Source: Candidatus Campbellbacteria bacterium (GTDB lineage: Bacteria; Patescibacteriota; Minisyncoccia; Phycocordibacterales; EsbW-18). Taken from it: a stretch of DNA of 57,377 nucleotides. Where the stretch lies: the NCBI GenBank assembly GCA_016699465.1, contig CP064977.1, positions 685,739-743,115 on the forward strand. The letters are read 5' to 3'. The notes below the pieces were generated by a model. That model had not been told where the DNA came from. It saw only the letters and a list, made by a program, of their open reading frames with translations, and ran no database searches. A program made the translations under genes and the position numbers. This document shows positions 4,792 through 55,696 of this stretch, in pieces; position 1 is the first letter of the stretch, and each line of letters starts with the position of its first letter.

Positions 4792-6087
4792 TTAGTTTTC
4801 TATAGTGGGTGTGTTATAGCTTATTTTTTGAGCGTCTTTAGAGAGTTTAAAAAATATACTTACAATAATAATAAGGCGAACAAATTCCATGGTGATGATG
4901 GAAATGAGAGCGCCCCAGATACCGTATACAGGAAGGAGAATGAAAAGGAGTAGTATCTTTGTTGCGGGGACAATAGTTTGGAGTATATAGAGCCATTTTT
5001 GTTGCATTTGTCCAACAAGAAATTGTTGAAATAAAACTGCCGGGAAAAAAAGTATTACAAGTGAAAATACTTGGGAATAACGAATTGCTTCAATGTAGTT
5101 TGGAAAAAAGAATGTAAAAAACCATGGGGCTATAGCAATATAAAAAAGTACAATACTAAGAGCTCCACAAAATACAAGCAATGCCTTTCGGGGAAGTGTT
5201 TTGTATAGCGGTAACGGATCAGCGGCACTAAACTTAGGCAATGATATTGTTGCAAGCAGTTTACTTCCAAATCGTAATTGTTGTGGTGCCGCAAGTGCAA
5301 TGGTATACAGTGCCATTTGAACAGCTCCTAGGTAGTGAAAAACCAGGAGGCGATCTAGTTGCATTGAGATAGAACCAAGTACATTTATAACACTTAAATG
5401 TTTTCCATAGGTTAGCATTTTTGATTCGGTTTTTTGTGGTGGATTGTATCGTGTAAGCGTGATCTTATAAAAAATCATTCCAGTGAGAGCGCTTATTCCA
5501 AAAAATGCCATCACAAGAAAAGGTGTTGCAGCTGTAAAGAGTGAAACAATTCCAGTCGCGAGTAGTGGGGTAATGGTGTATACCACACCAAAAATAGTTT
5601 CTGTTTTGAATTCCTTTTTTCCGATAAGGAAAGGACTAAAAAAACTACCCGCTTGAGAAAAGGGAATAGTGATACCGATAATCACTAGCGACCACCCAAG
5701 AGCGACGTTTCCTTGTATAAAATAATATACAGCCGAACCCCACGCTACAACAGTCATCAATACACTCCACGAGAGAAACGTTTTGAATCCTTGGCGAACA
5801 ACGCCGTCATTTCCGCGTGCTACGGATTGAATAATGGCAGTTCCCATTCCTGTTAACGAGAATGCGGTTATAATTCCTGCAAACGATTGGATAAATTTAT
5901 AATTACCGAGAGCTTCTTTTGAAATAGTGTTTGCAAGTAGCAGTGTAAGTAAGAATCCAGAGCCAGCACCCATTATTCGTCCGAATGTTATCCAAAAACC
6001 ACCCTTTGCTAGATAGAGCATGTCTGTTTTTGTGTATCGTTCGCTCCAGCGAAGTGCAGCAACCATCTTTTTTTTGAGCTCGTCCAT
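4792..6087 (-). CDS. Polysaccharide/oligosaccharide flippase (Wzx-like, MOP superfamily)
   Basis: 431 aa, hydrophobic throughout with about 12 predicted TM segments. The N-terminus ...YLAKGGFWITFGRIMG.. and its glycan-locus context fit Wzx-type exporters. Confidence 0.7.
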   Translation of the reverse strand: MDELKKKMVAALRWSERYTKTDMLYLAKGGFWITFGRIMGAGSGFLLTLLLANTISKEALGNYKFIQSFAGIITAFSLTGMGTAIIQSVARGNDGVVRQGFKTFLSWSVLMTVVAWGSAVYYFIQGNVALGWSLVIIGITIPFSQAGSFFSPFLIGKKEFKTETIFGVVYTITPLLATGIVSLFTAATPFLVMAFFGISALTGMIFYKITLTRYNPPQKTESKMLTYGKHLSVINVLGSISMQLDRLLVFHYLGAVQMALYTIALAAPQQLRFGSKLLATISLPKFSAADPLPLYKTLPRKALLVFCGALSIVLFYIAIAPWFFTFFFPNYIEAIRYSQVFSLVILFFPAVLFQQFLVGQMQQKWLYILQTIVPATKILLLFILLPVYGIWGALISIITMEFVRLIIIVSIFFKLSKDAQKISYNTPTIEN

Positions 6088-6232
6088 GTGTGGTAGTGTA
6101 CCCCGTTAGAAACAGGAAACCAAATGGTTTTTTAGTTCGTATACAATCACGGGTTCTGCTTGGTGTGTGTTCATATATACCACCGACCGAAGAGTCGACC
6201 ATCCTTTTTTAAGGTGCTATAGTATCTCGCAT

Positions 6233-8717: not shown

Positions 8718-8835
8718 AGGTGGTGTGGTGTGCTTACAAATGAGAAATGGGAGTTGTCCACATTTTCATTAAAAACCTTTTTAAATAAGGGTATATCAGG
8801 ATACAATGTACCTGTTGGAAGGTTTAAATCACGAA

Positions 8836-11800
8836 ATGAAAAACCCGACTTTTTTGCGTTATGTTACAACAGTAGTGCTCGCTCTTTTTCTTGTATGCGG
8901 AACGCTTTTTGCGCATTCAGCACACGCCTTTTCTCTTGATTCTTTTTTGAATACGTCGTCACCACGTTTTGTTCATACAAAGGAAGTCGCAGCATCTTGG
9001 TGGAATGCGTATGCCTACACAGCAAATGCAACTACTGGTCTTGTTGTTGAAGGATTCTTAGCGGTATGTACAGAATCACCAGCTATCCTCGCGTCTCTAC
9101 ACACGACTATTTCAGATATTCTCACAGACGGCGCTGAAGGTGTAATCACAACACTTGTGTATGATACGGTTCCGTTTATTCAAACTGTACAGGATATCAA
9201 TACAACCGTTGCCAATATCTACATCACGGGCGCGCAAGAAACATTTGCATTAGTTGGTGTATATGGTCGCACCGTGTATGAAGCAAATGCATTCGCATCA
9301 AGCATTCTTACAAACGGAGCAGAAGGTGTTATTACACTACTTGCAAACAACGCCACAACATTCGCACGAACACTTTTTGACATCAATACAACCGTTGCCA
9401 ATATCTACATCACGGGCGCACAGGAAACATTTGCATCGATTGCAACGTACGTTGTCAATGTGCGTGATGCAAATATGGCGGTGTCCGCTCTTTTGCTTGC
9501 AGGAGCAAATGATGTTGTGACGACAACTGAAAATAGTATGCATGCTCTTGCGCGCGCACTTCACCAAACGGCGCGTAGTATGCGTGTGGAAGGGCACACT
9601 ACATTTGCCGCAGTATACTCAAGTCTCGTACCGCCACAAGCAACATCAACACAAACACCAGCACCAACACTCTTCCAGAGAGCGCGAACCGCCCTCCGTT
9701 CATGGCTTGGTATCACCACAACGGTCATCACACTACCATCACTTCCAACACCACCAGCACCCGTTCAGCAAGTAACACAGACAACCATCCAAGGACCAGA
9801 ACGCATCATCGAAACACATACGTTCACCAACAACGTTCTCGGTCTTTCACAAGCAGATCTCACGAATGCAATTGCAGGACTTCGTCTCGAGTTGTTGCCA
9901 AAGATTAAACAGGCAATGGGTTCACCAACATACAACCCTCCCGACACCGCATACCTCGAACTCTCAGGTGGCACGCTCACTGGAAATCTTGCAGGCACCT
10001 CACTCACACTCACCAATAATCTTTCTGTTGCAGGTACTTTTGCTGATAGCAGTGGTGATGTGGGAACGGATGGCTACATTCTTCAAACAACAGGCACGAG
10101 TACCAACTGGGTTCCTGCAGCATCATTGAGTGTGACAGGAGATGGTACCTTCTCCACCACATCCGCTGACTACTTCATCACAAGTTCTTCAACCATCGCC
10201 CATGCATCAGGTGTTGCACTCGGCAACGTACTCCAGTGGGACGGAAGTGCCTGGGTTTCAGCCGCGACATCAACGCTTGGCATTGGTACATCGCAGTGGG
10301 TAACAAATAGTTCGGATATTTACTACTCAACAGGCAACGTCGGCATCGGTACTACGTCCCCGTATGCAAAACTTTCTGTCGTTGGTCCGGTTGTGGCTGA
10401 ATCATTTAATGCAACATCAACAACGGCGACGAGTACGTTTGCGGGTGTTTTGTATACTGCGGGTTCTTTTGCGGATAGTACGGGGAGTAAGGGGGTAAAT
10501 GGCATGGTTCTTCAATCAACAAACACTGGTGTGCAGTGGGTGGCCACATCATCACTCGGCATCTCGGGCATCACCGACCACGGACTACTCACCGGACTTT
10601 CTGACGATGACCACACACAATACGCGTTACTTGCCGGACGTTCTGGTGGGCAGACGCTTGTTGGAGGAACGGGGGCAACAGACGATCTCGTTCTTGATGG
10701 TTCTGCCGCAACGGCGGGAAGCGTGACCGTGAGCGAAGACGGAGATATCAATGTGGGTGGATTATTGAGTGTTCGACATAGTAATGTTTCTGCCCCGTAC
10801 TATTCTCTTGCGACGTTTGGATCTGCAAGTACTGGCTATTTGAGTATTTCGCAAGGGGATTCGGTCGGTAGGATTCTCAACTTTTTTTACGGATCTGATA
10901 TGGGGCTTTCGAATGGAAGTAGCCTCTTGTGGTCAGACAGTACAGACGGAGCATTGGGAACAGTAGATACCGGCCTCTCCCGTATCTCTGCCGGAATCCT
11001 CGGTGTTACAAACGGTTCTTCTGGTGGTGGTGCGCTGTATGCAAATTATTTTAACGCAACATCCACAACTGCGACGAGTACGTTTGGGGGACGCATCATC
11101 TCTCCAGGTATCGTTGGGGGAATAACTGGATCTGGGATACTGACACTTGATGGAGACCAGACGGTGGCTGGAAGTGCGTCGGTTGCTGCTAACGGAGTGA
11201 TTTCGTATAATGCGACGCAAAACACTGGGTCAATATCGATCGGGCCTATGAACTACGAGAACCTAGGTAGTGTTGCCTATACCATTGGCGCAGATGCTCG
11301 GTCTGGTCAGCAGGGGATGTTTCTTGCTACTGGTGGGTCGCTGGCGAATCTGGCGATAAGGAACCTGTTCCTTGGTACGGGGAGTACAGATTGGGGTGGA
11401 ACGTTTGTCGCCTTGATTGCTGATGGTGCGAATGCTCTTGCACAACGCAACAGCACGAACGCTCAGAATTTCCGTTTGTATGGCACGTACACTGACACAA
11501 ATAACTATGAACGCTTCACCGCTTCAACAACACAAGGAACCGGTGTTGTGCTCGGCATGGAAACCGCGGGAACAGGTGCGGATAATCTGCATATCATTCT
11601 TTCCCCGGCAGGAACAGGCAACGTCGGCATCGGTACTACGTCCCCGTATGCAAAACTTTCTGTCGTTGGTCCGGTTGTGGCTGAATCATTTAATGCAACA
11701 TCAACAACGGCGACGAGTACGTTTGCGGGTGTTTTGTATACTGCGGGTTCTTTTGCGGACAGTACGGGGAGTAAGGGGGTAAATGGCATGGTTCTTCAAT

Positions 11801-14697
11801 CAACAAACACTGGTGTGCAGTGGGTGGCCACATCATCACTCGGCATCTCGGGCATCACCGACCACGGACTACTCACCGGACTTTCTGATGATGACCACAC
11901 ACAATACGCGTTACTTGCCGGACGTTCTGGTGGACAGACGCTTGTTGGAGGAACGGGGGCAAGCGATACGTTGACTCTTGATGGAAGTCTTGGAACATCG
12001 GGCGCTCTTGTTGTGGGTGCATCGGGAGCATTGCTTGCTCCCGATGGAAATGCTACAACACCTGCGTATTCGTTTGCGAATGCGACGGGAATCGGAATAT
12101 ATAACGGTGGTGGAAACGAGTTGTCGTTTGATGGTGGATCACATCTGTTTACTATCAATGGCTCTAATCTTCTCAACCTTGTTTCAAACAAGGTGAATTT
12201 GGGTAGTGCTGTTGGTCTCAACTGGGGCACGATAGGCGGCTCTATGGATATCGGCCTCTCCCGTATCTCTGCCGGAATCCTCGGTGTTACAAACGGTTCT
12301 TCTGGTGGTGGTGCGCTTATGGCGGACTATCTCTCTGCAACATCAACAACGGCGACGAGTACGTTTGCGGGTGTTTTGTATACTGCGGGTTCTTTTGCGG
12401 ACAGTACGGGGAGTAAGGGGGTAAATGGCATGGTTCTTCGGTCAACAGGCACTGGTGTACAGTGGGCGGCAACGTCAACACTCGGGATTTCGGGCGGGCT
12501 TGGTACGGGGGGGCCGTCGTTTTCGGTCAATAAAAATACTACGAATCAAACCGTGACGGCAAACGTTGCAACGCTTCTAACGTGGAGCACAGAAGTGTTT
12601 GACACAAACAATAACTTTAGTACATCAACAGGAAAGTTCACCCCGACAGTTGCTGGAAAATATATCATCAGTGGTACTGTATATTGCCCCGGGGCGACAA
12701 ACTGTTATGTGTATATCTACAAGAACGGTTCTCTATACTTGCAGGGTGGAGAGGGTAGTGCCTCGAGCGTTGTTGCGAATATCTCGGCGGTTGTCGACAT
12801 GAATGGTTCAACCGACTACGTTGAGCTCTACGGACTCACCGGGGCAACGACCATTTCGGGTGCCGTTGATTCTACCCAATTTTCAGGTGCACTCTTGGCA
12901 CCAATCGATGCCGACGGTGGTGGATGGACGACAAATGGGTCGTACACCTATTTGACCAATGCCACAAATCTGGTTGGTGTTGGGTCAACATCTCCTTCTG
13001 CAAGATTTATCGTCAAAGGGAGCGGAACTGCTACAAACGCCTTTCAGGTTGTTTCGTCAGCAGATGTAAATATTCTTACTGTGTCGGATCTTGGATTTGT
13101 TGGTATCGGCACCACATCTCCCTATGCGAAGCTTTCCGTGGTCGGTGATGTCGCCATCGCAAGTGGCGGTCTCTATGACAACAACGCTTCACGAGGATCG
13201 AGTGGTATGGTGCTCCGGTCGACCGGCACTGGCTTGCAGTGGGTCGCAACATCGACACTCGGGATTTCGAGTGGTTCATCGCAGTGGACGACGAGCGGAT
13301 CGAATATTTATTACAGCACCGGAAATGTCGGCGTCGGCGTAACATCGCCAACATCTGCGGCGCTTGAGATCCAAGGGACGAATGGTACCGGAGCCGTTGC
13401 TCCGTTTGCACTATTTGCACAAGGAGGCAACGGCGGATCAGATGCCACGAACGGGTATAAGGGAGGGGGCTTCTCATTTATCGGAGGGGATGGTGGAGGA
13501 GCTTCTGATGGAACTGACAGCTTCGATATTTCTGGAGGTGATGGTGCTGACTTCGTTGTAACGGGCGGTGCTGGTGGTAGTGCGGATGGTGGGACAACTT
13601 CTACTGGAGGCGCCGGTGGAAGCGTCATCATTAATCCCGGCGCTGGAGGGGTTGCAACTGGCAGTAATCCACAAAACGGCGCTACGGGCAATGTCCTTCT
13701 TTCATATGATCGCGGCAACGTGGGTATAGGAAGCATCAGTAATTCGTCCGCAATGTTGTATTTCTATGATTCGAACCAGGGCATTAAACAATCGAGCGGG
13801 TCGCTTCAGTTCCTCACCGGAGGGAGCCCGCGTTTCTATGTCGCATCGGGTGGAAACGTCGGCGTTGCAACATCGTCTCCGTGGCGGACATTCGCGGTGA
13901 CCGGCACTGTTGGTTTTTCGAGCACGCTCTCTGCTGAAGCTGGGAGTGACAACTATCTTTGTATCGACCCGGTGACGTATGAAGTAACGAATGGCGGGGC
14001 AAACTGTGGTGCGTCGTCGGAGCGTTTCAAAGAGAACATCGTCGATCTTGCCTATGGGCTTGATGAAGTAAAGGCACTGCGCCCCGTCAATTTCACCTAT
14101 AAGAGAGAGATTACGCCGGACGGTTCCACACATATCGGACTTATTGCCGAAGAGGTCGCTCAGATTGTTCCGGAGGTTGTTGAATTTGATGAGGACGGAA
14201 AGCCCGAATCGGTGTCGTACGACAACCTCGTTGCGCTTCTCATTAAGGCGGTGCAGGAGCTCTCTGATAAGGTTGATGTGCTCCTCGCGTCGGCGGGACA
14301 ATCAATTTCTGGTGGTGTGGCACGCTTTGTTGATGCGGTTGTTGACCGACTTACCGTGGGAAGTGCTGAGGAACCATCGGGGATCACGCTTTTTGATGAT
14401 GTAACGGGCGAACCGTATTGTTTGTCGGTGCACAACGGTGCCACGGTGACCCAGGCGGGTGCGTGTGACACGCAACCTTTGGATGAACCAAACGGTGACG
14501 GCTCGGGTGCTGTTTCGGCTTCTGGATCTACCACAAGTGATCCTGTTGTTGACGAACCGACTACCGATGAACCAGGTGGTGATGAACCGGTCGTCGATGC
14601 CACGACGCCAGAGAATCCTCCCGCCGAGGAAGCCCCGGCGGTCGTTGAGCCTTCCAACGAGACTCCTGCCGAGAGTGTTGGAGATGTGGCCCCGTAG
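8836..14697 (+). CDS. Giant secreted Ser/Thr/Gly-rich fibre protein with C-terminal peptidase-S74 intramolecular-chaperone (tail-fibre/endosialidase type) domain
   Basis: ORF 8806..14697, start trimmed to ATG 8836 (MKNPTFLRYVTTVVLALFLVCGTLFAHSAHA, signal-peptide-like). Internal protein repeats, a Gly-rich block (GGNGGSDATNGYKGGGFSFIGGDGGG...). S74-type motif SSERFKENIVDLAYGLDEVKALRPVNFTYK...GLIAEEVAQIVPEVV...SVSYDNLVALLIKAVQEL. Confidence 0.85.
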   Translation: MKNPTFLRYVTTVVLALFLVCGTLFAHSAHAFSLDSFLNTSSPRFVHTKEVAASWWNAYAYTANATTGLVVEGFLAVCTESPAILASLHTTISDILTDGAEGVITTLVYDTVPFIQTVQDINTTVANIYITGAQETFALVGVYGRTVYEANAFASSILTNGAEGVITLLANNATTFARTLFDINTTVANIYITGAQETFASIATYVVNVRDANMAVSALLLAGANDVVTTTENSMHALARALHQTARSMRVEGHTTFAAVYSSLVPPQATSTQTPAPTLFQRARTALRSWLGITTTVITLPSLPTPPAPVQQVTQTTIQGPERIIETHTFTNNVLGLSQADLTNAIAGLRLELLPKIKQAMGSPTYNPPDTAYLELSGGTLTGNLAGTSLTLTNNLSVAGTFADSSGDVGTDGYILQTTGTSTNWVPAASLSVTGDGTFSTTSADYFITSSSTIAHASGVALGNVLQWDGSAWVSAATSTLGIGTSQWVTNSSDIYYSTGNVGIGTTSPYAKLSVVGPVVAESFNATSTTATSTFAGVLYTAGSFADSTGSKGVNGMVLQSTNTGVQWVATSSLGISGITDHGLLTGLSDDDHTQYALLAGRSGGQTLVGGTGATDDLVLDGSAATAGSVTVSEDGDINVGGLLSVRHSNVSAPYYSLATFGSASTGYLSISQGDSVGRILNFFYGSDMGLSNGSSLLWSDSTDGALGTVDTGLSRISAGILGVTNGSSGGGALYANYFNATSTTATSTFGGRIISPGIVGGITGSGILTLDGDQTVAGSASVAANGVISYNATQNTGSISIGPMNYENLGSVAYTIGADARSGQQGMFLATGGSLANLAIRNLFLGTGSTDWGGTFVALIADGANALAQRNSTNAQNFRLYGTYTDTNNYERFTASTTQGTGVVLGMETAGTGADNLHIILSPAGTGNVGIGTTSPYAKLSVVGPVVAESFNATSTTATSTFAGVLYTAGSFADSTGSKGVNGMVLQSTNTGVQWVATSSLGISGITDHGLLTGLSDDDHTQYALLAGRSGGQTLVGGTGASDTLTLDGSLGTSGALVVGASGALLAPDGNATTPAYSFANATGIGIYNGGGNELSFDGGSHLFTINGSNLLNLVSNKVNLGSAVGLNWGTIGGSMDIGLSRISAGILGVTNGSSGGGALMADYLSATSTTATSTFAGVLYTAGSFADSTGSKGVNGMVLRSTGTGVQWAATSTLGISGGLGTGGPSFSVNKNTTNQTVTANVATLLTWSTEVFDTNNNFSTSTGKFTPTVAGKYIISGTVYCPGATNCYVYIYKNGSLYLQGGEGSASSVVANISAVVDMNGSTDYVELYGLTGATTISGAVDSTQFSGALLAPIDADGGGWTTNGSYTYLTNATNLVGVGSTSPSARFIVKGSGTATNAFQVVSSADVNILTVSDLGFVGIGTTSPYAKLSVVGDVAIASGGLYDNNASRGSSGMVLRSTGTGLQWVATSTLGISSGSSQWTTSGSNIYYSTGNVGVGVTSPTSAALEIQGTNGTGAVAPFALFAQGGNGGSDATNGYKGGGFSFIGGDGGGASDGTDSFDISGGDGADFVVTGGAGGSADGGTTSTGGAGGSVIINPGAGGVATGSNPQNGATGNVLLSYDRGNVGIGSISNSSAMLYFYDSNQGIKQSSGSLQFLTGGSPRFYVASGGNVGVATSSPWRTFAVTGTVGFSSTLSAEAGSDNYLCIDPVTYEVTNGGANCGASSERFKENIVDLAYGLDEVKALRPVNFTYKREITPDGSTHIGLIAEEVAQIVPEVVEFDEDGKPESVSYDNLVALLIKAVQELSDKVDVLLASAGQSISGGVARFVDAVVDRLTVGSAEEPSGITLFDDVTGEPYCLSVHNGATVTQAGACDTQPLDEPNGDGSGAVSASGSTTSDPVVDEPTTDEPGGDEPVVDATTPENPPAEEAPAVVEPSNETPAESVGDVAP
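10329..10678 (+). repeat. 350-bp intragenic repeat, copy A
   Basis: Matches 11613-11962 except for the 3 mismatches I found (T/C, C/T, G/A), all synonymous. Confidence 0.9.
11613..11962 (+). repeat. 350-bp intragenic repeat, copy B
   Basis: See copy A. A third partial copy starts near 12337. A further 66-bp identical pair lies at 10971-11036 and 12252-12317. Confidence 0.9.
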
Positions 14698-16937: not shown

Positions 16938-16966
16938 GCTAACGCTTTGTCCCACATACAAAAAAT

Positions 16967-17090
16967 CGCCCTCGGGCGATTTTTTGTATACAAACACTTT
17001 ATTCGTGATTGTTTCATACAATCACTTGCGCCCTCGGGCGATTTTTTGTATACAAACACTTTATTCGTGATTGTTTGTAACAATCACTCG
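16967..17090 (+). repeat. Tandem 62-bp duplication, each unit containing a terminator hairpin
   Basis: Units 16967-17028 and 17029-17090; the first 48 nt are identical. Each unit has CGCCC-TCG-GGCG plus T6, the palindrome TTGTATACAA, and a second hairpin GTGATTGT..ACAATCAC. Confidence 0.8.
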
Positions 17091-25593: not shown

Positions 25594-25611
25594 TCATAAT
25601 TATCTAACGAG

Positions 25612-26094
25612 ATGAAAATTGCACTTGGAGCAGATCACGCAGGATTTAAACTCAAAGAATACGTGAGAGATTTTCTTGTTTCTCAAGATCATGAGGTGAT
25701 GGATAAAGGTGCGTTTTCATTTGATGCTGATGACGATTATCCAGACTTTGTATTTTCCGTAGCACATGCAGTTGCTGAGGGAGAAGTGGAGCGAGGAATT
25801 GTTATCGGGAGTTCAGGGCAAGGGGAGGGGGTTGCCGCAAATCGTGTTAAAGGTATTCGTGCACTTGTGTATTACGGAGCACACGAATCTCTTGGGCAAA
25901 CATCGAAAGTTGGTGAACAAAAAGGAATTATCGAATCGAGTCGTGAAGATAATGATTCAAATATTCTTTCACTCGGCGCATCTTTTGTAACACATGAGGA
26001 AGCCAAGGAAGTTATTGAGAAGTGGTTGAATACTCCGTTTACAAATGAGGAACGTCACGTTCGTAGAATTCAAAAACTAGACTCTACTTTCTAG
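25612..26094 (+). CDS. rpiB: Ribose-5-phosphate isomerase B
   Basis: MKIALGADHAGFKLKEYV, GIVIGSSGQGEGVAANR. Confidence 0.9.
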   Translation: MKIALGADHAGFKLKEYVRDFLVSQDHEVMDKGAFSFDADDDYPDFVFSVAHAVAEGEVERGIVIGSSGQGEGVAANRVKGIRALVYYGAHESLGQTSKVGEQKGIIESSREDNDSNILSLGASFVTHEEAKEVIEKWLNTPFTNEERHVRRIQKLDSTF

Positions 26095-30330: not shown

Positions 30331-30410
30331 GGTGTTGCCTCCTTTCTTTGGTGGACTTGTCTGGTGCAATTTAAGCATATGTGGGTGTGTATGTAAACTG
30401 GTGGAACATG

Positions 30411-30490
30411 GGGCATGTAACACAAGGCATGTAACACAAAGCATGCAACGTGTAACACGTAGCACAAAGCACAAAGTATGTAACATGTAG
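30411..30490. repeat. Array of short direct repeats (GGCATGTAACACAA x2 plus degenerate TGTAAC/TGCAAC copies; AGCACAA x2)
   Basis: TGTAAC or TGCAAC cores at 30417, 30431, 30444, 30451 and 30479. Located upstream of the minus-strand gene at 30061-30330. Confidence 0.6.
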
Positions 30491-30548
30491 TAATACCTTT
30501 TGTTGCTCGCTACACACTACATGTTTTGTGATAGAATTATAGTATGAA

Positions 30549-30670
30549 TCCCGTTAGAGATATGTCGTTTTGTTTTTTTACACCGCACTTTAATATTATG
30601 ATATGGTGAAAAGGCACACATTAATAATGATAACTACGGAAATGCAAGGTATTTCCTATCTCTAACGGGA
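30549..30670 (+). mobile_element. MITE-like inverted-repeat element, copy 1 (122 bp) on the fba start codon
   Basis: TCCCGTTAGAGAT ... ATCTCTAACGGGA. The perfect inverted repeat extends to 15 bp (30548-30562 vs 30657-30671) and is flanked by a direct TGAA (30545-30548 and 30671-30674). Confidence 0.5.
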
Positions 30671-31536
30671 TGAAAACTTTACGTGAAGCAGTACAAGAGG
30701 CACAACAACAGAAACGGGCCATTGGACATTTCAATGTTGCTAGCGTGGAAATGATACAGGCGGTTGTTGGTGCGGGTAAAGATACTGAACTCCCAGTCAT
30801 TGTGGGCGTGTCAGAAGGTGAACGTGATGTGTTTGGAACTACGGCGCTTGTTGCACTACTTCATACGATTCGTGAAAAAACTGGTCGTGAGATATATCTC
30901 AATGCTGATCACACATACAGTGTTGAACGAGTGAAGGAGGCAATTGATGCGGGATTTGACTCAGTAATTTTTGATGGAGCAGAACTTTCTTTTGAGGAAA
31001 ACATTGTGAAAACGAAAGAGTGTGTTGCATACGCGCGCGCATCAGGAAGAGATGTTTTAGTTGAAGGTGAACTTGGATTTATTGGTATTGGTTCAAAAAT
31101 GTTGGATGCATTGCCAGAAGGTGTTGCCGTGACCGATGAAACAATGACGACCGTTGCGGATGCACTTCGTTTTGTACAAGAAACAGGAGTAGATATGCTT
31201 GCCCCAGCTGTTGGAAATGTACACGGTATGCTTAAAGGTGGGCACAATCCACAACTTAATCCAGAGCGTGTTGCCGAGATTGCTCAGGCGGTGGAAATTC
31301 CACTCGTGCTTCATGGTGGGTCGGGTATTACCGACGAAGATTTTACGGCGGCTATTAGTAAGGGGATTTCGATTGTGCATATTAGTACTGAATTGCGTGT
31401 GGCCTATCGACAATCACTCCAACTTTCTCTCCAAGAGAGCCCAGAAGAACTTGCTCCCTACAAATTTATGAAACCTGTTATTTCGGCAGTGCGCGATGTT
31501 GCCGTGCGTCGTCTTAAGCTCTTTGCAGGCTTGTAA
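30670..31536 (+). CDS. fba: Class II fructose/tagatose-bisphosphate aldolase
   Basis: AIGHFNV, LNADHT, LHGGSG motifs. Confidence 0.9.
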   Translation: MKTLREAVQEAQQQKRAIGHFNVASVEMIQAVVGAGKDTELPVIVGVSEGERDVFGTTALVALLHTIREKTGREIYLNADHTYSVERVKEAIDAGFDSVIFDGAELSFEENIVKTKECVAYARASGRDVLVEGELGFIGIGSKMLDALPEGVAVTDETMTTVADALRFVQETGVDMLAPAVGNVHGMLKGGHNPQLNPERVAEIAQAVEIPLVLHGGSGITDEDFTAAISKGISIVHISTELRVAYRQSLQLSLQESPEELAPYKFMKPVISAVRDVAVRRLKLFAGL

Positions 31537-33830: not shown

Positions 33831-33913
33831 GTGTGCGTACTATTGAATGTGTACAAAAATAAAAACTGTTATACTGAAAGGGTGTTATTTTTTTAATCGG
33901 TCTCGCATATGAA

Positions 33914-33976
33914 TCCCGTTAGAGGTTTATTATATTCACGAAAATACTTTTTTTGTACATAACCTATGTAGTATTA
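33914..33976 (+). mobile_element. MITE-like element, truncated copy 2 (left arm only)
   Basis: ATGAA|TCCCGTTAGAGG... with internal similarity to copy 3 (TTATT..TATTCACGAA). The right arm is missing. The next gene starts at ATGAAA 33976. Confidence 0.4.
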
Positions 33977-36738
33977 TGAAATACCCTTTTAAAAAAAACA
34001 CACTTTCTAACCGGATGAAACTGTTTTCACGTATCTGTATCTTTGTTGGCGCACTTCTTGCGGTGGTTCCATTCGTGTCACAGGCCGCTACAGCTTTGGA
34101 TTCTGTGCCTGACGCGGTAAAGAGCAAGTACGCGTTTGATGGTCCTGTTTATGCTGTTGTTAGTGACGGAGCCACGTTGTATGTGGGGGGGTCTTTTACC
34201 GCGGTAACACCGAGACAAATTGATCCACCCTCTTTCTTGAGAAATAATCTCGCAGCAATTGATCTTTCGACGTATACCCTAACATCATTTGCACCGAGTG
34301 TGGGTGGTGGTGTTGACGCCCTCGCTCTTTCGGCGGACGGTGAAACGCTGTATGTGGGTGGTAGTTTTAGTTGTGTCGGAGCGCTGGATGAATTTGATGT
34401 GTGCACAGGTGTTACACAAAATAAAATTGCCGCCTTCGATACTGCGGGTTCCGGAACACTACTTCCATTTAACCCCGACATCTCCGGGGGAGACGTTGCC
34501 ACACTCACACTTTCATCGGGGGCTACCCCAACACTCTATGTGGGAGGCGATTTTTCGCAGGTTGGAGCCACAACACGCAACACTATGGCTGCGTTTGATA
34601 TGACTGACAACGTGGGCACGCTTTTATCGTTTAATCCTGATATAAGTACCGACGTCAATGATAGTGTTCTTTCCCAAGACGAATCAACAATATACGTCAC
34701 GGGCACTTTCTCAACCGTTAATGGGGGCATGCCACAGGAGTATCTTGCTGCTCTCGATGCTGTTTCTGGAGAAAACCAAGACTGGGGGGTTTCTTTGGAT
34801 GGTGGTGGTAATGTTCTTAAAATTTCTTCTGATGGAAATACGCTCTATGTGGGAGGAAGTTTTTCTTCTTTCATGAGACAGTCGGGCGAAGGAGTTCCGT
34901 TTGATGAAGATACAAATGAGGCTCTCGCGACGTTTCCGATAGTTCGAACCAATCAGGGTGGGGGCGGGGGCGGGGATTCCACTATATATGCTGTGATTCC
35001 CGATGGTGATGGTGGGTGGTATATCGGCGGAAGCTTTACGCATGTGGGGACGACGTCTCAGGGGCGTCTTGCGCACATCACATCAGGAGGGCTCTTCGAC
35101 GATACTTTTACACCAGATGTTAATGGGACAGTCTATGCTCTCGAACTCTCTCCGGATGGATCAACACTGTATATCGGTGGAAACTTTGACACCGTTGATG
35201 GAGAAAGTCGAGATTATTTTGCTGCCCTTGATACAAGTGATGGCTCGGTAACTGTGCTCAATCTCTTTTTCGACGGTATTGTACGAGACTTGAAATTTTC
35301 TTCGGATGGGAGTGAATTGTATGTTGCCGGAGGATTTTCAGAAGTTGCCGCATCTTCGCGACGAGGTGTCGCCGCTCTTGATATGTTGGACGAAGGGTCA
35401 CTTCTTCCTTTTGATGCCGATTTGTATGGGTCTGGATATGCATATGCACTCGAGCTTTCACCAGATGATTCTGTGCTCTATGTTGGTGGTGATTTTTCGG
35501 CTGTAAAATATGGAGCGGGACCCGGAACCTTGAGAAACAATAGTGCTGCCTTTACTACCGCGGATGATGGTGCGGTGACAGCATTTAATCCAAATGCCGA
35601 TGGTATTCTTCGTACGCTGGCTCTCTCGGGGGGTGGTGACACGCTCTACGCCGGAGGAGAGTTTCTTACCATAGGAGGAGAAGCTCGGCATGAATTTGCA
35701 GAGCTCGACATGACGACGGGTAGTTCAACGGGTCTCCTTGATGCCAATATTGTGGGCGAAGTCGGAACAGTGCAATCCATTGCGGTGTCTGGTGATGGTG
35801 CAAGTGTGTACATCGGTGGTGCGAATTTTTCCGAAATCGGTGGTGCGTCGCGCGCGTATTTTGGAGAGATTGATGCAAACACGGGGCTTGCAACGAATTT
35901 CAACCCGTCATTCAACGATGAGGTTAGAGCTATCGCGGTTGATTCTGTTGGGGGTACCGTATACGTTGGTGGTAGTTTTACAAAACATGATCCTGAATCG
36001 TCTCCGTATCTTCTTGCAATAAACCTGGCAGATAACTCACACGTAACGTCTTTTGCCCCGATTCTTGATGCCGATGTTTACGCTCTCGCGCTTTCTTCGG
36101 ACGATACAGTCCTCTATGCGGCGGGATATGCGGTTGATGGAGATGGTGCGATCGTGCCAGCTTTTCTCAAAGGTATTGATACGAGCGATGGAGATGCCAC
36201 CGCCTTTGCACCGGATGACATGAAAAGCATCTACGCGATGGCACTTAGGTCGGATGACTCTGAGCTCTTTGTCCCAAATTTTGATCAAAATGTGACCAAC
36301 AATACCAACGTACTTGTCTTTGATGCGGACGGAGATGTGTCACTTGACGTTACTGCACCCGTTATCACACTTCTTGGTAGTTCAGATATTGAACTTACTG
36401 TTGGTAGTACATACACGGATGCCGGTGCTACTGCTGAGGATAATGTGGATGGTGATATTACTGCGGACATTGAAGTTGGTGGAGATGTCGTTAATCCATC
36501 TGTTGTTGGTATCTATGTTATTACGTACAACGTCCAGGATAGTGAAGGTAATTCTGCGACGGAGGTGACGCGAACAGTTACTATAGTGAGTCAAGAAGAG
36601 GGTTCTGGTGGTAGCTTGACGGGAAGAAGTGGAGCGGTTGGTAGTGGATCTGGAAAAGATCTTCGGTTTCTTCTTGAAAAATTAACTGAAGTGTTACGAC
36701 AATACCTCATGTTGTTGCTTGCAGAAAAACAACAATAG
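33976..36738 (+). CDS. Secreted delta-60-repeat/beta-propeller protein with C-terminal Ig-like (DUF5011-type) domain
   Basis: N-terminal TM/signal segment. At least 12 repeats of the type TLYVGGSF..V.G..R..LAA.D...G....FNP. Then PVITLLGSSDIELTVGSTYTDAGATAEDNVDGDIT...VGIYVITYNVQDSEGNSA. Confidence 0.75.
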   Translation: MKYPFKKNTLSNRMKLFSRICIFVGALLAVVPFVSQAATALDSVPDAVKSKYAFDGPVYAVVSDGATLYVGGSFTAVTPRQIDPPSFLRNNLAAIDLSTYTLTSFAPSVGGGVDALALSADGETLYVGGSFSCVGALDEFDVCTGVTQNKIAAFDTAGSGTLLPFNPDISGGDVATLTLSSGATPTLYVGGDFSQVGATTRNTMAAFDMTDNVGTLLSFNPDISTDVNDSVLSQDESTIYVTGTFSTVNGGMPQEYLAALDAVSGENQDWGVSLDGGGNVLKISSDGNTLYVGGSFSSFMRQSGEGVPFDEDTNEALATFPIVRTNQGGGGGGDSTIYAVIPDGDGGWYIGGSFTHVGTTSQGRLAHITSGGLFDDTFTPDVNGTVYALELSPDGSTLYIGGNFDTVDGESRDYFAALDTSDGSVTVLNLFFDGIVRDLKFSSDGSELYVAGGFSEVAASSRRGVAALDMLDEGSLLPFDADLYGSGYAYALELSPDDSVLYVGGDFSAVKYGAGPGTLRNNSAAFTTADDGAVTAFNPNADGILRTLALSGGGDTLYAGGEFLTIGGEARHEFAELDMTTGSSTGLLDANIVGEVGTVQSIAVSGDGASVYIGGANFSEIGGASRAYFGEIDANTGLATNFNPSFNDEVRAIAVDSVGGTVYVGGSFTKHDPESSPYLLAINLADNSHVTSFAPILDADVYALALSSDDTVLYAAGYAVDGDGAIVPAFLKGIDTSDGDATAFAPDDMKSIYAMALRSDDSELFVPNFDQNVTNNTNVLVFDADGDVSLDVTAPVITLLGSSDIELTVGSTYTDAGATAEDNVDGDITADIEVGGDVVNPSVVGIYVITYNVQDSEGNSATEVTRTVTIVSQEEGSGGSLTGRSGAVGSGSGKDLRFLLEKLTEVLRQYLMLLLAEKQQ

Positions 36739-52301: not shown

Positions 52302-52424
52302 GTTGTGTTCCTCCTCTGGTTTGGTCAGTTCTGTTTGTATACTATACCCACCATTTTAAGTACGCAAATCTTTGTTACGAAGATGTTTTATTTTAGGTCA
52401 AATCAAAGGTATAATCAGCACATC

Positions 52425-53144
52425 ATGGAACAAAAAGGATTTTACCACCCACTGACTGCCGCTATTCGTGATTTTGAACGTATCTTCCGTGGCATGGGTT
52501 TTTCTGTGGCTACAGGGCCAGAAATTGAAGACGAGTGGCACAACTTCACAGCACTCAATGTTCCCAAGGACCACCCGGCACGTGATATGCAGGACACATT
52601 CTGGCTTCCAGACGGACGCGTCATGCGTACGCACACATCTCCCGTGCAAGTACGCTATATGGAGACACACAAGCCACCTATTCGTATTATTGTGCCCGGA
52701 AAGGTATATCGTAACGAGGCGACTGACATGACGCATGAAGCGCAGTTCTATCAACTCGAAGGGCTGGTTGTTTCAGAAGATACAACACTCGCACACTTGA
52801 AAGGTGTACTTGAAACTTTTTTCAGAGAATTTTTTGGTGGTAGTGTTGAAGTTCGACTTCGTCCCAGCTTCTTTGGATTTACTGAACCGTCAGTTGAAGT
52901 TGATATGCGACTTACCGGCGAACATGTGTCTCCAAAACTTCGCGACCGTTGGATTGAAGTGATGGGAGCAGGTATGGTGCATCCAAATGTGCTCAATAAT
53001 GCAGGTATTGATCCGAAACGTTACCAAGGGTTTGCTTTTGGTGGAGGTGTGGAGCGTCTCTGTATGCTCAAGTGGGGAATTGATGACGTGCGATTGTTCC
53101 ACACCGGGGATTTACGCCTAACCATGCAGTTTCCTACAGAATAA
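52425..53144 (+). CDS. pheS: Phenylalanyl-tRNA synthetase alpha subunit (minimal 239-aa form)
   Basis: ORF 52254..53144, start trimmed to ATG 52425 (9 nt after TATAAT 52410-52415); the longer form overlaps the divergent gene. HPARDMQDTFW, FRPSFFGFTEPS, GAGMVHPNVL, GFAFGGGVERL. Confidence 0.9.
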   Translation: MEQKGFYHPLTAAIRDFERIFRGMGFSVATGPEIEDEWHNFTALNVPKDHPARDMQDTFWLPDGRVMRTHTSPVQVRYMETHKPPIRIIVPGKVYRNEATDMTHEAQFYQLEGLVVSEDTTLAHLKGVLETFFREFFGGSVEVRLRPSFFGFTEPSVEVDMRLTGEHVSPKLRDRWIEVMGAGMVHPNVLNNAGIDPKRYQGFAFGGGVERLCMLKWGIDDVRLFHTGDLRLTMQFPTE

Positions 53145-53150
53145 TATGAA

Positions 53151-53273
53151 TCCCGTTAGAAATCACTCATGTATGTTCGTGCCCAATATTCAAAAAACGT
53201 CGATATATTATTCGTATACTCACGAAGGTGTGATAACAATGGAAACGCACCACGTTTCTAATTTCTAACGGGA
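53151..53273 (+). mobile_element. MITE-like inverted-repeat element, copy 3 (123 bp) between pheS and pheT
   Basis: TCCCGTTAGAAAT ... ATTTCTAACGGGA. The 14-bp perfect inverted repeat (53150-53163 vs 53261-53274) is flanked by a direct TGAA (53147-53150 and 53274-53277). Confidence 0.5.
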
Positions 53274-55696
53274 TGAAAGTTTCACGTGCATGGCTTCAAA
53301 CATTTTTTGAAAAACCACTTCCCGAAGTGAGTGAGCTTGAACATGTTCTCACATTCGGTGCATTTGAAATTGAGGGAACAGAAAAAGTTGGAGAAGATAC
53401 CGTGCTAGATGTGAAAGTGTTACCTAATCGTGCACACGATTGTTTGTGCCATCGGGGTATTGCAAAAGAATTCTCTGTTTTGTGCTCCATACCGTTATCG
53501 CACGATCCGCTGTCGGGTCCGGTTCCTTCGTTTGAAAAAAATGGAGTTCTACACGTTTCTGTTGAAAAAGAAAATGCGTGTCCTATATACCAAGCAGCTC
53601 TTGTGAAGGGTATTACCGTTGGCCCATCTCCGAAGTGGCTCTCAGAGCGACTCGAAACACTTGGTCAACGTTCAATAAACAATGTTGTTGATGCGACAAA
53701 CTTTGTCATGCTCGAACTCGGACAACCACTCCATGCATTTGATGCACAAAAGTTGGGAGATGCGGATGGCGCAAAATCAATTCGTGTGCGTATGGCACGT
53801 GCGGGGGAGAGTATCACTGTTCTTGGGGGCACAACGTACGAACTAGATGAAACTATTCAACTCATTACTGATGCATCAGGAGATACACCACTCGCAATTG
53901 CGGGTATTAAAGGTGGAAGTCAGGCAGAAGTGGATACAACAACGGTAGACATTGTTTTGGAATCAGCGAAGTTTCATCCAACACTCACGCGCAAGGCGTC
54001 GCAAAAATTAAAATTGCGCACTGATGCGTCACATCGTTTCGAAAATGAGATTCCCGATGAATTACCACTGTACGCACTTCAAGCTCTTGTTGCGCTTATT
54101 GTCGATGTGGCAGGAGGGCGCGTTAGTGGATATGGAGGTTTTGAGAGGGCTCGTGCGGCACTTCCATACAAGATCGGCATTTCATCACGTGAGGCAAATA
54201 AACTTCTTGGAACAGCTCTGTCAGACACCGAGCTCTCACAGATTTTTGATCGGTTTTCATTCTCGTATACAAAAATAGAAAATCCACGAGAGGTGATTGT
54301 GCAAAAAGCTCGAAGTGTCATTGGTGCTCCGTATAAGCGTATGGCACGAATTCGATATGATACCCCAGAGAGTTTCAACTGCTCGTCCTTGACTGCATGG
54401 TGTGCTATTGAGGCGGGATTTTCACTTGGTGTTGCGCGTATTGCAATTGATCAATATGCGTATCTCGATGAAATTACTGAGAGTGAACTCCAGCCGGGCG
54501 ATTTTGTATTTACTAACACAGAAGTGGTGCGTACTATTGACGGAGAAAATTATTCCACAGCCTTGGACAGAATGGTCAAAGACGAAGCAATACGGACACA
54601 TACACTTGAATATGTCCCAGGAACTGACGTGGGGCACGGTGTTGATCATATGGGTATCTATGTCGGTGATGGAAAAGTTGTTCACGCGTCATCCGATCTC
54701 GGTGGAGTTGTTGAAGAAGACCTTGCAACAAGTGCTATTTTTGCAAAAGAAAAATGGTATCGCCGACTAGTGTCTGATACGACGCCAAGATTCTCGGTTA
54801 CGGTGCCATTTGAGCGTATGGATATGCGTTTTAGCGCTGACGTGTGTGAAGAAATTGGACGAGTGTATGGCTACGAACATGTTCGCGCGCAAGACTTACC
54901 TACTGCGTCACACCGTGTTGAAGTAAATCCTATTTTCGTCGCTCAAGAAGTTGTACGTAAGGTTCTCGGTGAATGTGGATTTTTTGAAGTATATTCGTAC
55001 TCATTGTGTGAAAAAGGTGATATACAACTTGCAAATGCACTCGCAAGTGATAAGGCTTTTGTGAGAAGCTCGCTTGCATTGGGTATTGGTGAATCGCTCG
55101 CAAAGAATGAATACTATGCGCCGCTCCTCGGTCTTTCGGATGTAAAGATTTTTGAGATTGGAAACGTATACAATGCAACAGGAGAACATTTGCGCGTGTG
55201 TCTAGGTGTGCGTCCTCTTACTCAAGCAAAAAAATCTGAGAAGACAAACGCAATGCTTCTTGAGGCTAAAGAAAAACTCGAGTCGGCATTTGGCGTTGAT
55301 GTGAACGAATATATTTCTGAAGAGACGCTCGAGTTTGATCTTGGTGTTATTGCACAAACACATATCCTCACACAGCCGGAGTTTGCACCCGTTGCACAGG
55401 CTACTCAGTTTGTACCGATGTCATCGTATCCGTTTGTGTTGCGTGATATTGCAGTGTGGATTCCTGATGGTACAGGAAAGGGAGAAGATATTGTGGCTCT
55501 AGTAAAAGAGAAAGGTGGCACACTTTTTGTTCGTGCTGATTTATTTGATACGTTTACCAAAGATGGTCGCACATCGTACGCGTACCACCTTGTATTTCAG
55601 TCACGTGAAAAAACACTTTCAGATGAAGATATTAATAGCATTATGAATGCGGTCACGGAAGCATTGAATGCGCGTGATGGTTGGGTAGTACGATAG
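53273..55696 (+). CDS. pheT: Phenylalanyl-tRNA synthetase beta subunit carrying an inserted NlpC/P60-like domain
   Basis: B1 (MKVSRAWLQTFF...), B3_4 (NVVDATNFVMLELGQPLHAFD), a B5-like segment, core (FSADVCEEIGRVYGYEHV), and FDX-ACB C-terminus (FVLRDIAVWIP). The insert at aa 337-505 has GAPYKRM, FNCSSL, PGDFVF, HMGIYVGDGKVVHASS. Confidence 0.9.
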   Translation: MKVSRAWLQTFFEKPLPEVSELEHVLTFGAFEIEGTEKVGEDTVLDVKVLPNRAHDCLCHRGIAKEFSVLCSIPLSHDPLSGPVPSFEKNGVLHVSVEKENACPIYQAALVKGITVGPSPKWLSERLETLGQRSINNVVDATNFVMLELGQPLHAFDAQKLGDADGAKSIRVRMARAGESITVLGGTTYELDETIQLITDASGDTPLAIAGIKGGSQAEVDTTTVDIVLESAKFHPTLTRKASQKLKLRTDASHRFENEIPDELPLYALQALVALIVDVAGGRVSGYGGFERARAALPYKIGISSREANKLLGTALSDTELSQIFDRFSFSYTKIENPREVIVQKARSVIGAPYKRMARIRYDTPESFNCSSLTAWCAIEAGFSLGVARIAIDQYAYLDEITESELQPGDFVFTNTEVVRTIDGENYSTALDRMVKDEAIRTHTLEYVPGTDVGHGVDHMGIYVGDGKVVHASSDLGGVVEEDLATSAIFAKEKWYRRLVSDTTPRFSVTVPFERMDMRFSADVCEEIGRVYGYEHVRAQDLPTASHRVEVNPIFVAQEVVRKVLGECGFFEVYSYSLCEKGDIQLANALASDKAFVRSSLALGIGESLAKNEYYAPLLGLSDVKIFEIGNVYNATGEHLRVCLGVRPLTQAKKSEKTNAMLLEAKEKLESAFGVDVNEYISEETLEFDLGVIAQTHILTQPEFAPVAQATQFVPMSSYPFVLRDIAVWIPDGTGKGEDIVALVKEKGGTLFVRADLFDTFTKDGRTSYAYHLVFQSREKTLSDEDINSIMNAVTEALNARDGWVVR

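Follow-up and report, generated by a model that had tools for sequence, protein, structure and literature searches.

A decayed GIY-YIG element on the pheT start codon of a Candidatus Campbellbacteria genome and its possible role as a translational relay

Introduction

Known MITEs (miniature transposable elements with inverted repeats) derive from insertion sequences with a DDE transposase; Correia elements of Neisseria are intergenic, with TA as their target, and Rickettsia palindromic elements lie in frame inside open reading frames (ORFs). We know of no MITE that is tied to a start codon and regenerates it. In this study we analyzed a stretch of 57,377 nucleotides from Candidatus Campbellbacteria bacterium (assembly GCA_016699465.1, contig CP064977.1, positions 685,739 to 743,115 of the forward strand; hereafter the window), in which a short repeated element lies between pheS, the gene of phenylalanyl-tRNA synthetase alpha, and pheT, and ends on the pheT start codon.

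Translational coupling of neighboring genes is known from overlapping ATGA and TAATG junctions, from erm leader peptides and from the coat-replicase pair of MS2. The pheS-pheT junction of the window resembles these cases in that an upstream stop lies a few nucleotides from the AUG, the AUG is predicted to be paired unless the upstream arm is translated, and there is no Shine-Dalgarno sequence. It differs in that the upstream ORF (uORF) proposed to do the coupling would come from a mobile element and would ancestrally have been a nuclease gene.

Ssn, a 94-aa single-domain GIY-YIG nuclease, cuts only single-stranded DNA (ssDNA), a short distance 5' of the NTS/SRM hairpin (Chenal et al., 2025, Nat Commun, PMC11893778). 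Ssn genes are bracketed by repeats, in an architecture that the authors term 'identical to' that of an insertion sequence, and SRM repeats reach hundreds of copies in some genomes; the paper mentions neither bacteria of the candidate phyla radiation (CPR) nor start codons (PMC11893778).

Here we report that window positions 53146-53277 are very probably a mobile-element derivative, namely a decayed member of a widespread GIY-YIG family that resides on start codons. The explanation that we consider reasonably likely for the locus as a whole is a MITE-like derivative of a GIY-YIG element, the layout of which has been kept as a translational relay between pheS and pheT.

Results

Anatomy of the element between pheS and pheT

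The element at this junction is the third of three copies in the window (copy 3; Table 1). pheS, the true start of which lies at about 52410 (MEQKG...), ends with TAA at 53142-53144, and the single T at 53145 separates this stop from the first ATG (ATG1). The left target-site duplication (TSD) is TGAA at 53147-53150, and the element that follows is bounded by the inverted arms TCCCGTTAGAAAT (53151-53163) and ATTTCTAACGGGA (53261-53273), with a sub-terminal hairpin, GGAAACGCACCACGTTTC, at 53241-53258. Its termini are those of the full-length GIY-YIG elements described below. The pheT ATG (53273-53275) is rebuilt from the terminal A of the element and the TG of the right duplication (TGAA, 53274-53277). 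An earlier note on this DNA, made from the letters alone, had stated that the old start codon now opens a uORF, which the sequence bears out, and its coordinates for copy 3 all proved exact when compared with the sequence, the ORF list and Pfam. The TAA of this uORF begins 7 nt before the A of the pheT ATG (position -7) and ends 4 nt short of it.

In the predicted RNA fold, 53150-53163 pairs with 53261-53274 over 14 bp, and the A and U of the pheT AUG lie within the stem, in agreement with the earlier suggestion that the stem sequesters this AUG. The fold energy is -35.8 kcal/mol for RNA (z = -2.9) and -21 kcal/mol for DNA (z = -3.6). An Rfam scan of window positions 30000-57377 (E <= 1) assigned no family to any copy, and gave only a tRNA and a weak rimP match elsewhere.

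Filled, empty and nuclease-bearing versions of the same junction

A comparison of the pheS-pheT junction in related genomes had been suggested in the earlier note. Relatives of PheT were retrieved with their flanks and the junction was read in each (loci are labeled L121 and so on), which revealed empty, mini-filled and nuclease-bearing versions. In L121, from the closest genome (78% nucleotide identity in pheT), the junction is empty and reads TAA-CCCGT-ATGAAAGTTTCACG; empty junctions were also found in L124 (TAA-ATAT-ATGAAGG) and L128 (TAA-TCT-ATGAAAG). These three relatives (TAA-N3-5-ATG) confirm that the element is an insertion and that the pheS-pheT junction into which it went was tightly coupled. 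In L125, the site of copy 3 is occupied by an element of likewise 123 nt, and in L123 only a right-end stub is left at the pheT start.

At the same junction, L122 (a Campbellbacteria metagenome-assembled genome) has a 285-nt form, taact-ATGAA^TCCCGATAGTGT...ACACTATCGGGA^TGAAAG, where ^ marks the boundary of the element. It encloses a 94-aa ORF (MNPDSVKKFYYVYVLKS...RRIKRFLTLSG) that starts at the left duplicated ATG and ends with a TGA overlapping the pheT ATG. L127 has another variant at this junction, CCCGTTAGAGAT...ATCTCTAACGGGC, with an 86-aa ORF that stops 2 nt before the pheT ATG. Both ORFs are GIY-YIG proteins (Pfam PF01541, E = 2.6e-13 and 5.5e-18). The MNPVR at the beginning of the window uORFs thus corresponds to the arm-encoded N-terminus of the nuclease. 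Similarly, the right arm, read as CTA-ACG-GGA-TGA, encodes its C-terminus (...LTG-stop).

Copy 3 and the copy of L125 are 89.4% identical over 123 nt with no indel, whereas their flanks are less similar (67% in pheT, 74% at the 3' end of pheS, and 44% at third codon positions). Together with the empty junction of L121, this identity is explained either by recent independent insertion at the same ATGAAAG, or by inheritance under constraint with loss in L121. A 15-mer interior probe against genome contigs, matches of which are mostly random, gave among the matches listed a second element of the copy 3 subfamily (L271), located on the ATG of another gene in the L125 genome. This paralogue indicates that the subfamily is mobile, and conservation at the site is therefore not counted as evidence of function. 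Metagenome scans for the window's own junction and for the copy 3 subfamily returned nothing.

The CCCGT in the empty junction of L121 (L121 2612-2630) equals bases 2-6 of the left arm of the element. This may be a trace of excision or a coincidence; as excision would require two deletions, the former reading is regarded as unproven.

The family of short copies and its target

Short copies (mini-elements) were collected by searching one genome per GTDB species for exact matches to TCCCGTTAGA-N80-110-TCTAACGGGA, which gave at least 120 loci. The 139 copies among the matches listed, the window included, were analyzed, and all counts of mini-elements and of full-length elements given here refer to the matches listed. 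The mini-elements span Saccharibacteria, Paceibacteria/Parcubacteria lineages, Microgenomates, Omnitrophota, Elusimicrobia and others. In the majority (121/139), the end coincides exactly with the ATG of an ORF of 60 aa or more, and the left ATG has been lost in about 30 of these 121. The most frequent flanks are ATGAA with TGAA (53), ATGGA with TGGA (16) and ATGAG with TGAG (15), besides others, and a matching TGNN duplication (ATGNN^...^TGNN) is present in about 100 of the 139 copies. Rare duplications without ATG also occur (CTGA, CTTA, TTTA, TAAA and a nested CTAA); because they fix the length, the duplication is 4 bp and the element runs from T to A. A target logo of 91 reconstructed sites contains information only at the ATG and the next two purines, giving A^TG-purine-purine as the target.

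Arm positions 11-13 show compensating changes in at least 10 combinations (AAT/ATT, AGC/GCT, GAT/ATC and others), a pattern consistent with recognition of the hairpin, which would select for such variation, and no proof of it. The interiors are variable and poorly conserved; where their orientation relative to the host gene could be called, 53 are forward and 5 reversed. As for the hallmarks of a MITE, the window copies are 102-123 nt long, lack an enzyme of their own, have inverted arms and a fixed 4-bp duplication, and occupy multiple unrelated loci.

Several loci contain tandem or nested copies (L093 5472-5711; L014 5898-6279; L105 658-758; L109 3860-3890). In a tandem case, two mini-elements lie head to tail and share one TGAA (…CGGGATGAATCCCG…); in a nested case, a mini-element is inserted in the right arm of another with the duplication CTAA. 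There is also a solo left end directly after a full-length element.

Full-length elements encode a single-domain GIY-YIG nuclease

A scan for the same ends 240-270 nt apart retrieved at least 122 full-length elements, which add Planctomycetota, Nitrospirota, Desulfobacterota, Bacteroidota and DPANN archaea to the lineages above. The intact form is about 275-285 bp long and consists of one 84-96-aa single-domain GIY-YIG gene (Pfam PF01541 only) between 13-nt inverted ends. Distant arm pairs in about 0.9 Mb of loci were also examined for a longer, autonomous element enclosed between them, and none was found beyond this form. Viral contigs contained 4 full-length elements and no mini-elements, so phages are not an obvious main reservoir.

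Of the 54 T...A-type elements whose ORF has 75 aa or more, 46 adjoin, at the regenerated ATG, a host ORF of 60 aa or more. In 48 of the 54, the nuclease stops at the host ATG, either with the TGA of an ATGA overlap (position +1, 37 elements) or with the right-arm TAA (position -7, 11 elements), and in 27 of 34 the nuclease ORF starts at, or in frame with, the duplicated host ATG.

Homologues of the nuclease form more than 3,300 clusters, most of them unnamed or annotated as 'GIY-YIG nuclease family protein', 'putative endonuclease' or, wrongly, 'excinuclease ABC subunit C'. By sequence, the PDB entries closest to the nuclease are 1ZG2 (E = 1.9e-8) and 1YWL, both UPF0213 proteins; SLX1 matches weakly, and NCBIfam has no model above cut-off. 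UPF0213-type proteins belong to the prokaryotic GIY-YIG domains described as minimal and 'Slx1-like' (Dunin-Horkawicz et al., 2006, PMC1564403).

Other arrangements were observed among the full-length elements. A sister type (L150, L154, L155, L189 and others) has C...G ends, CCCCGTTAGA...TCTAACGGGG, and at A^TGNN regenerates GTG, not ATG. Ten other elements are flanked as TTCA^...^TAAATG, with the nuclease stop TAA directly before the host ATG and no evident duplication. L143 (1533-2563) contains a pair of full-length elements, separated by 485 nt, whose flanks are swapped (TTCA-[B]-TTTA ... TTTA-[A]-TTCA); this looks like a composite or nested arrangement, or like recombination between copies.

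Occupancy of start codons

To obtain an expectation for random insertion, elements were removed from the listed mini-element loci, genes were called crudely and ATGRR motifs (R, purine) were counted. The reconstructed empty loci contain 375 motifs at gene starts, 1288 in 'intergenic' positions, which is an overestimate, and 5442 inside ORFs. If insertion at ATGRR were random and intragenic insertions were purged, about 23% of the elements should lie at gene starts, while about 90% were observed there; an ATGRR at a start codon is thus tens of times likelier to be occupied. Either the machinery senses more than 5 bp, or elements persist preferentially at start codons. Persistence could arise in two ways: an element that is removed imprecisely from a start codon would take the function of the gene with it, and the nuclease would be expressed only from copies that lie on a translated ATG.

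A same-strand upstream ORF ends at most 60 nt before the mini-element in 58 of 114 cases, about 40 of these within 8 nt of the left ATG and 15 on an ATGA overlap. Targeting of the promoter bubble of leaderless genes was considered as a general rule and rejected, since half of the mini-elements directly follow an upstream gene of the same operon. The downstream similarity of the three window copies (TTTCACGT), which had suggested a longer target, is attributed to chance, as the 91-site logo is devoid of information beyond ATG and the two purines.

Other copies and fragments in the window

All three window copies have ATGAA^...^TGAA flanks and inverted arms and end on the ATG of a real gene (Table 1). 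The host gene of copy 1 encodes a class-II fructose-bisphosphate aldolase (30670-31536); its uORF, MNPVRDMSFCFFTPHFNIMIW, stops at 30607-30609, 60 nt ahead of the host ATG at 30670. Copy 2, the right arm of which has one mismatch (TCTAACCGGA), precedes a gene for a secreted beta-propeller/Ig-like surface protein, and its uORF, MNPVRGLLYSRKYFFCT, stops at 33960-33962, 52 nt ahead of the host ATG at 34015. Within copy 2 there is an ATG at 33976 in the host frame, which would prepend MKYPFKKNTLSNR to the signal peptide; ORF callers will choose this internal ATG or ATG1 over the true start. The statement in the earlier note that all three uORFs begin with MNPVR is true, and follows automatically from the duplication and the conserved arm, so it is not independent evidence.

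A search of the window with a profile built from the relatives found exactly these three copies and one end fragment. The arm motif has 9 matches at no more than 2 mismatches, compared with 1.4 expected, and none of 100 shuffles reached 9, so the arm copies are not due to chance. The end fragment (6102-6128; AAAACCATTTGGTTTCCTGTTTCTAACGGGG) is followed after 14 nt by the ATG of gene 4792-6087 on the minus strand, and no left end was found for it. The last A of the probable decayed right end at 25596-25612 is the A of the rpiB ATG (25612), an arrangement that resembles the stub at the pheT start of L123.

Stop positions of the uORFs

The relay was examined with the 91 mini-elements that have an intact left ATG, with shuffled interiors as the null. 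The uORF is open to the right-arm stops in 33 of 91 (24 at position -7 and 9 at +1), compared with an expectation of 9.4 +/- 2.9 (maximum 17), and the other five frames of the interior are open in 10-20 of 91 each. After clustering at 70% interior identity, 29 of 71 remain open, against 10% in the null. Among mini-elements of a length at which the uORF would be joined to the host protein (L mod 3 = 2), 0 of 22 are open. Apart from the arm-encoded MxPVR, the uORF peptides share nothing and are unrelated to the nuclease; any selection would act on being translated and not on the product.

In the copy 3 subfamily, the uORF is open in all three members (the window copy, the L125 copy at the same site, and L271). 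That of L271 is open despite a 1-nt indel, having switched to the TGA stop and the ancestral ...RFLSLTG ending. The -7 stop used by the copy 3 uORF is also used by 24 other mini-elements and by 11 intact nuclease ORFs. Every mini-element uORF has at least 6 codons, which suffice to traverse the left arm and open the stem; hairpin melting may therefore be the common denominator, with reinitiation beside the stop as an extra.

As to the translational background, a Shine-Dalgarno-like motif precedes only 6 of 42 window genes (long ORFs, loose test), and many window genes have -10-like boxes (TATACT, TATAGT, TAGAAT) 4-10 nt upstream of the ATG, such as TGATAGAAT (30527-30537), 6 nt before ATG1 of copy 1. 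These boxes suggest that leaderless or very short-leader mRNAs are widespread.

Further observations in the window

PheT of the window has 807 aa and contains, at about residues 364-416 (window 54360-54520), a segment resembling NlpC/P60 cysteine peptidases (Pfam PF00877, E = 2.5e-9), which is inserted in the B5 region or next to it. The 807-aa form is common to L121-L125, and PheT of L126-L131 has about 600 aa and no such segment. An exact-protein look-up of the window's PheT and aldolase returned no record. The divergent region just upstream of copy 1 (30405-30495) contains an array of short repeats of the GTAACAC/GCACAAAG type (catgtaacacaaggcatgtaacacaaagcatgcaacgtgtaacacgtagcacaaagcacaaagtatgtaacatg). 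At 16956-17090 there are two tandem 62-nt units, 94% identical, each with a GC-rich hairpin and a T-run (CGCCCTCGGGCGATTTTTT), which resemble a duplicated terminator module. An ORF of 1963 aa (8806-14697) has internal 300-nt repeats at spacings of 642 and 1284 nt that are up to 99% identical, and the GC content of this region (0.51-0.52) is above the window average.

Table 1. Element copies, fragments and adjoining genes in the window
Feature	Coordinates	Strand	Evidence and remarks
pheS (phenylalanyl-tRNA synthetase alpha)	52410..53144	+	Pfam tRNA-synt_2d, E = 5.8e-93; ORF list
Left target copy: original pheT ATG (53146-53148) plus AA	53146..53150	+	Sequence
Mini-element copy 3, 123 nt, non-autonomous, interior without nuclease ORF	53151..53273	+	
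40-codon uORF from duplicated ATG	53146..53268	+	Reads MNPVRNHSCMFVPNIQKTSIYYSYTHEGVITMETHHVSNF; TAA 53266-53268 in right arm
pheT	53273..55696	+	Pfam B3_4, B5, FDX-ACB; N-terminus MKVSRAWLQTFF conserved in relatives
Copy 1	30544..30674	+	ATG1 30544-30546; element 30549-30670 (122 nt); TGAA 30545-30548 and 30671-30674
Copy 2	33909..34019	+	ATG1 33909-33911; element 33914-34015 (102 nt); TGAA 33910-33913 and 34016-34019
Right-end fragment of related element, C...G-terminus type	6102..6128	-	Sub-terminal hairpin plus CCTGTTTCTAACGGGG; nhmmer E = 0.013
Probable decayed right end, TTATCTAACGAG^A	25596..25612	+	One mismatch to TCTAACGGGA

Discussion

A possible mechanism

The family inserts at A^TG-purine-purine with a 4-bp duplication, and the last A of the element together with the duplicated TG rebuilds the host start. 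In the intact form, the nuclease ORF usually begins on the left host ATG and thereby borrows the translation start of the host; its stop, either the TGA shared with the rebuilt start (ATGA) or the TAA of the right arm, would deliver ribosomes to the host start. At pheT, ribosomes that finish pheS would restart 1 nt later at ATG1, translation of the 40-codon uORF would unwind the 14-bp stem that hides the pheT AUG, and the stop 4 nt before this AUG would allow reinitiation on pheT. By analogy with Ssn nucleases, mobilization may proceed by cutting the ssDNA of the hairpin; whether the nuclease mobilizes the element at all is to us an evenly balanced question. Read-through uORFs in excess of expectation, and the position of the stop in intact elements, lend indirect support to a dependence of pheT translation on the uORF relay, a proposition about which we have slightly more doubt than belief. 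The relay had been proposed in the earlier note, and its layout turns out to be native to the family, with the intact nuclease stop at the host ATG in most elements; the geometry itself is found in copy 3 (gaps of 1 nt and 4 nt) and not in copies 1 and 2 (60 and 52 nt).

We further propose, tentatively and leaning against it as a complete account, that these elements could form an undescribed minimal class: a gene of about 280 bp for an Ssn-like GIY-YIG nuclease, enclosed in a hairpin, which would actively target starts including ATGA overlaps, borrow the host start and return the ribosome by reinitiation. After decay of the nuclease, selection would keep an arbitrary uORF, and hosts such as pheT would have become dependent on the remnant.

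Comparison with described systems

Among described systems, Ssn is nearest to the family and resembles it in several respects: both have a bare GIY-YIG protein of about 94 aa without a DNA-binding domain, the gene lies between inverted or hairpin repeats that also occur gene-less in many copies, and the repeat cores are similar (TCCCG...CGGGA here, ATTCCCGCG...GCGGGAAT in NTS). A fixed cut 5' of the hairpin, as made by Ssn, would fit the fixed 4-nt stagger seen here. The two differ in that here the gene lies inside one large hairpin, the ends of which pair together, whereas Ssn genes lie between two complete small hairpins, and in that here 4-bp duplications are made, start codons are rebuilt and the nuclease ORF sits on the host ATG. 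The SRM consensus HGTCWY..YYVSBRH..WNVSBRG..RNCYNB, used as a regular expression, had 0 matches in the 139 mini-elements and 122 full-length elements with their flanks. By analogy, the family may work like the pairs of Ssn with its repeat and of MITE with its parent, and it is not filed as an Ssn member, as the SRM feature is absent.

Like the Correia and Rickettsia palindromic elements, the mini-elements are short, non-coding and multi-copy, with inverted repeats, duplications and transcript hairpins, and known MITEs can alter or co-exist with host gene expression, as here. In contrast to them, the putative parent is a GIY-YIG nuclease and not a transposase. IS200/IS605 and REP/RAYT systems, in which single-strand transposition is guided by hairpins, share the minimal element, a small nuclease that recognizes hairpins (putatively so in the present family), a 4-5-nt target and abundant gene-less derivatives; they differ in having HUH/Y1 transposases, no end-to-end paired repeats and no duplication, where the present family has GIY-YIG, paired ends and a 4-bp duplication. 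An identity with the IS200/IS605 type was rejected, there being no HUH enzyme and a duplication being made. Free-standing GIY-YIG homing genes (T4 seg, I-TevI; PMC2988022, PMC1564403) are likewise selfish GIY-YIG genes between host genes, but have DNA-binding domains, recognize one long cognate site and spread through the repair of breaks, lacking both inverted ends and duplications. Identity with a homing endonuclease was rejected in view of the bare catalytic domain, the terminal inverted repeats and TSDs, and the position in front of hundreds of unrelated genes. In the literature searched, which leaves most subscription journals outside, we found no description of elements that occupy start codons, nor of these known kinds (a MITE/parent pair, an Ssn-like nuclease with hairpin repeats, and translational coupling) in combination; this is not proof of novelty.

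Alternative explanations

Several points weigh against a relay that has been kept by selection, or against the GIY-YIG enzyme as its mobilizer. The uORF stops early in 57 of 91 mini-elements and in window copies 1 and 2, so a relay with the stop beside the start cannot be a general requirement. Part of the surplus of open uORFs may be left over from the reading frame of the parent; 24 of the 33 open uORFs combine start and stop frames in a way that simple in-frame deletion would not give. At tightly coupled junctions, open uORFs are only somewhat more frequent (15/31 versus 16/54, p = 0.10, a trend only). The 89% identity between the two copies at pheT, compared with 67-74% in the flanks, may reflect recent independent insertion and not constraint, and start-codon occupancy might owe much to selection or retention and not to active targeting. 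A phmmer search across the 57-kb window detected no GIY-YIG ORF, and thus no full-length copy. To our knowledge, no GIY-YIG nuclease acts as a transposase.

Some of these points are what would be expected if the element were a selfish MITE with an incidental uORF, tolerated because the ATG is rebuilt, with pheT initiating independently at the second AUG (AUG2) when the stem breathes. The stop beside the ATG would then be luck, one length class in three placing the arm TAA in frame. Besides the early stops, the mini-elements that have lost the left ATG, the lack of peptide conservation beyond MxPVR, and a genome poor in Shine-Dalgarno sequences, where non-canonical initiation is normal, agree with this account. 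We nevertheless consider it unlikely, since read-through uORFs exceed expectation about 3.5-fold and survive clustering, the host frame is not reached by an open uORF in any of the 22 mini-elements with L mod 3 = 2, the AUG is held in a 13-14-bp stem with a predicted fold of -36 kcal/mol, and the intact nuclease stops at the host ATG in 48 of 54 elements. An outward-facing promoter in the element would make ATG1 and the uORF irrelevant, by giving the host gene a new transcript that starts near AUG2 and has a short leader or none. Some MITEs, Correia elements among them, are known to carry promoters, -10-like boxes precede many window genes at 4-10 nt, and copy 3 has TCTAAT 10 nt upstream of the pheT ATG. 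This, however, appears improbable: a consensus scan of the gene strand inside the three copies gave no promoter-like site, no -10-like hexamer is appropriately spaced in the conserved right end (CCTATCTCTAACGGGA), interiors are poorly conserved, and about half of the mini-elements lie within operons directly after the upstream gene.

We give hardly any credence to the two remaining accounts. A cis-regulatory RNA (thermometer, riboswitch or attenuator) that evolved locally to control pheT, with no mobile insertion, would agree with the stable hairpin that sequesters the start and with the 89% identity at the site in two genomes whose flanking genes are 67-74% identical; it is largely refuted by the 4-bp direct duplications and the empty junctions of closer relatives. 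The same ends also occur before unrelated genes in hundreds of genomes, a nuclease-encoding version exists, no Rfam family matches, and the interiors are variable. Ribosome-bypassed mobile elements exist (Magnusiomyces byps, T4 gene 60), and the identical AUGAA on both sides of a stable hairpin would allow ribosomes from AUG1 to hop across it as a 'translational intron'. Programmed bypass of the gene 60/byp kind was rejected: despite the matched AUGAA, AUG1 is followed neither by a stop codon nor by any known take-off context, hopping is superfluous when the second AUG already is a start codon, and long uORFs into the insert are enriched.

Significance

If the account of a start-codon-resident GIY-YIG family is true, a tiny selfish element would occupy the one position per gene that is both expressible and harmless in gene-dense genomes, and it would be the first mobile element known to us with the start codon itself as target. 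Mobility would provide a biological context for the newly described Ssn-type ssDNA nucleases outside Neisseria, and the pairs of nuclease and hairpin, in which arm triplets co-vary, could add to the set of ssDNA-cutting tools that has been proposed for Ssn enzymes. Thousands of CPR gene annotations would be affected, the real start lying 100-290 nt downstream of a good-looking ATG, and the label 'excinuclease ABC subunit C' on 95-aa ORFs would be wrong. Finally, the family would offer a naturally replicated experiment on how coupling and reinitiation work in bacteria with few Shine-Dalgarno sequences.

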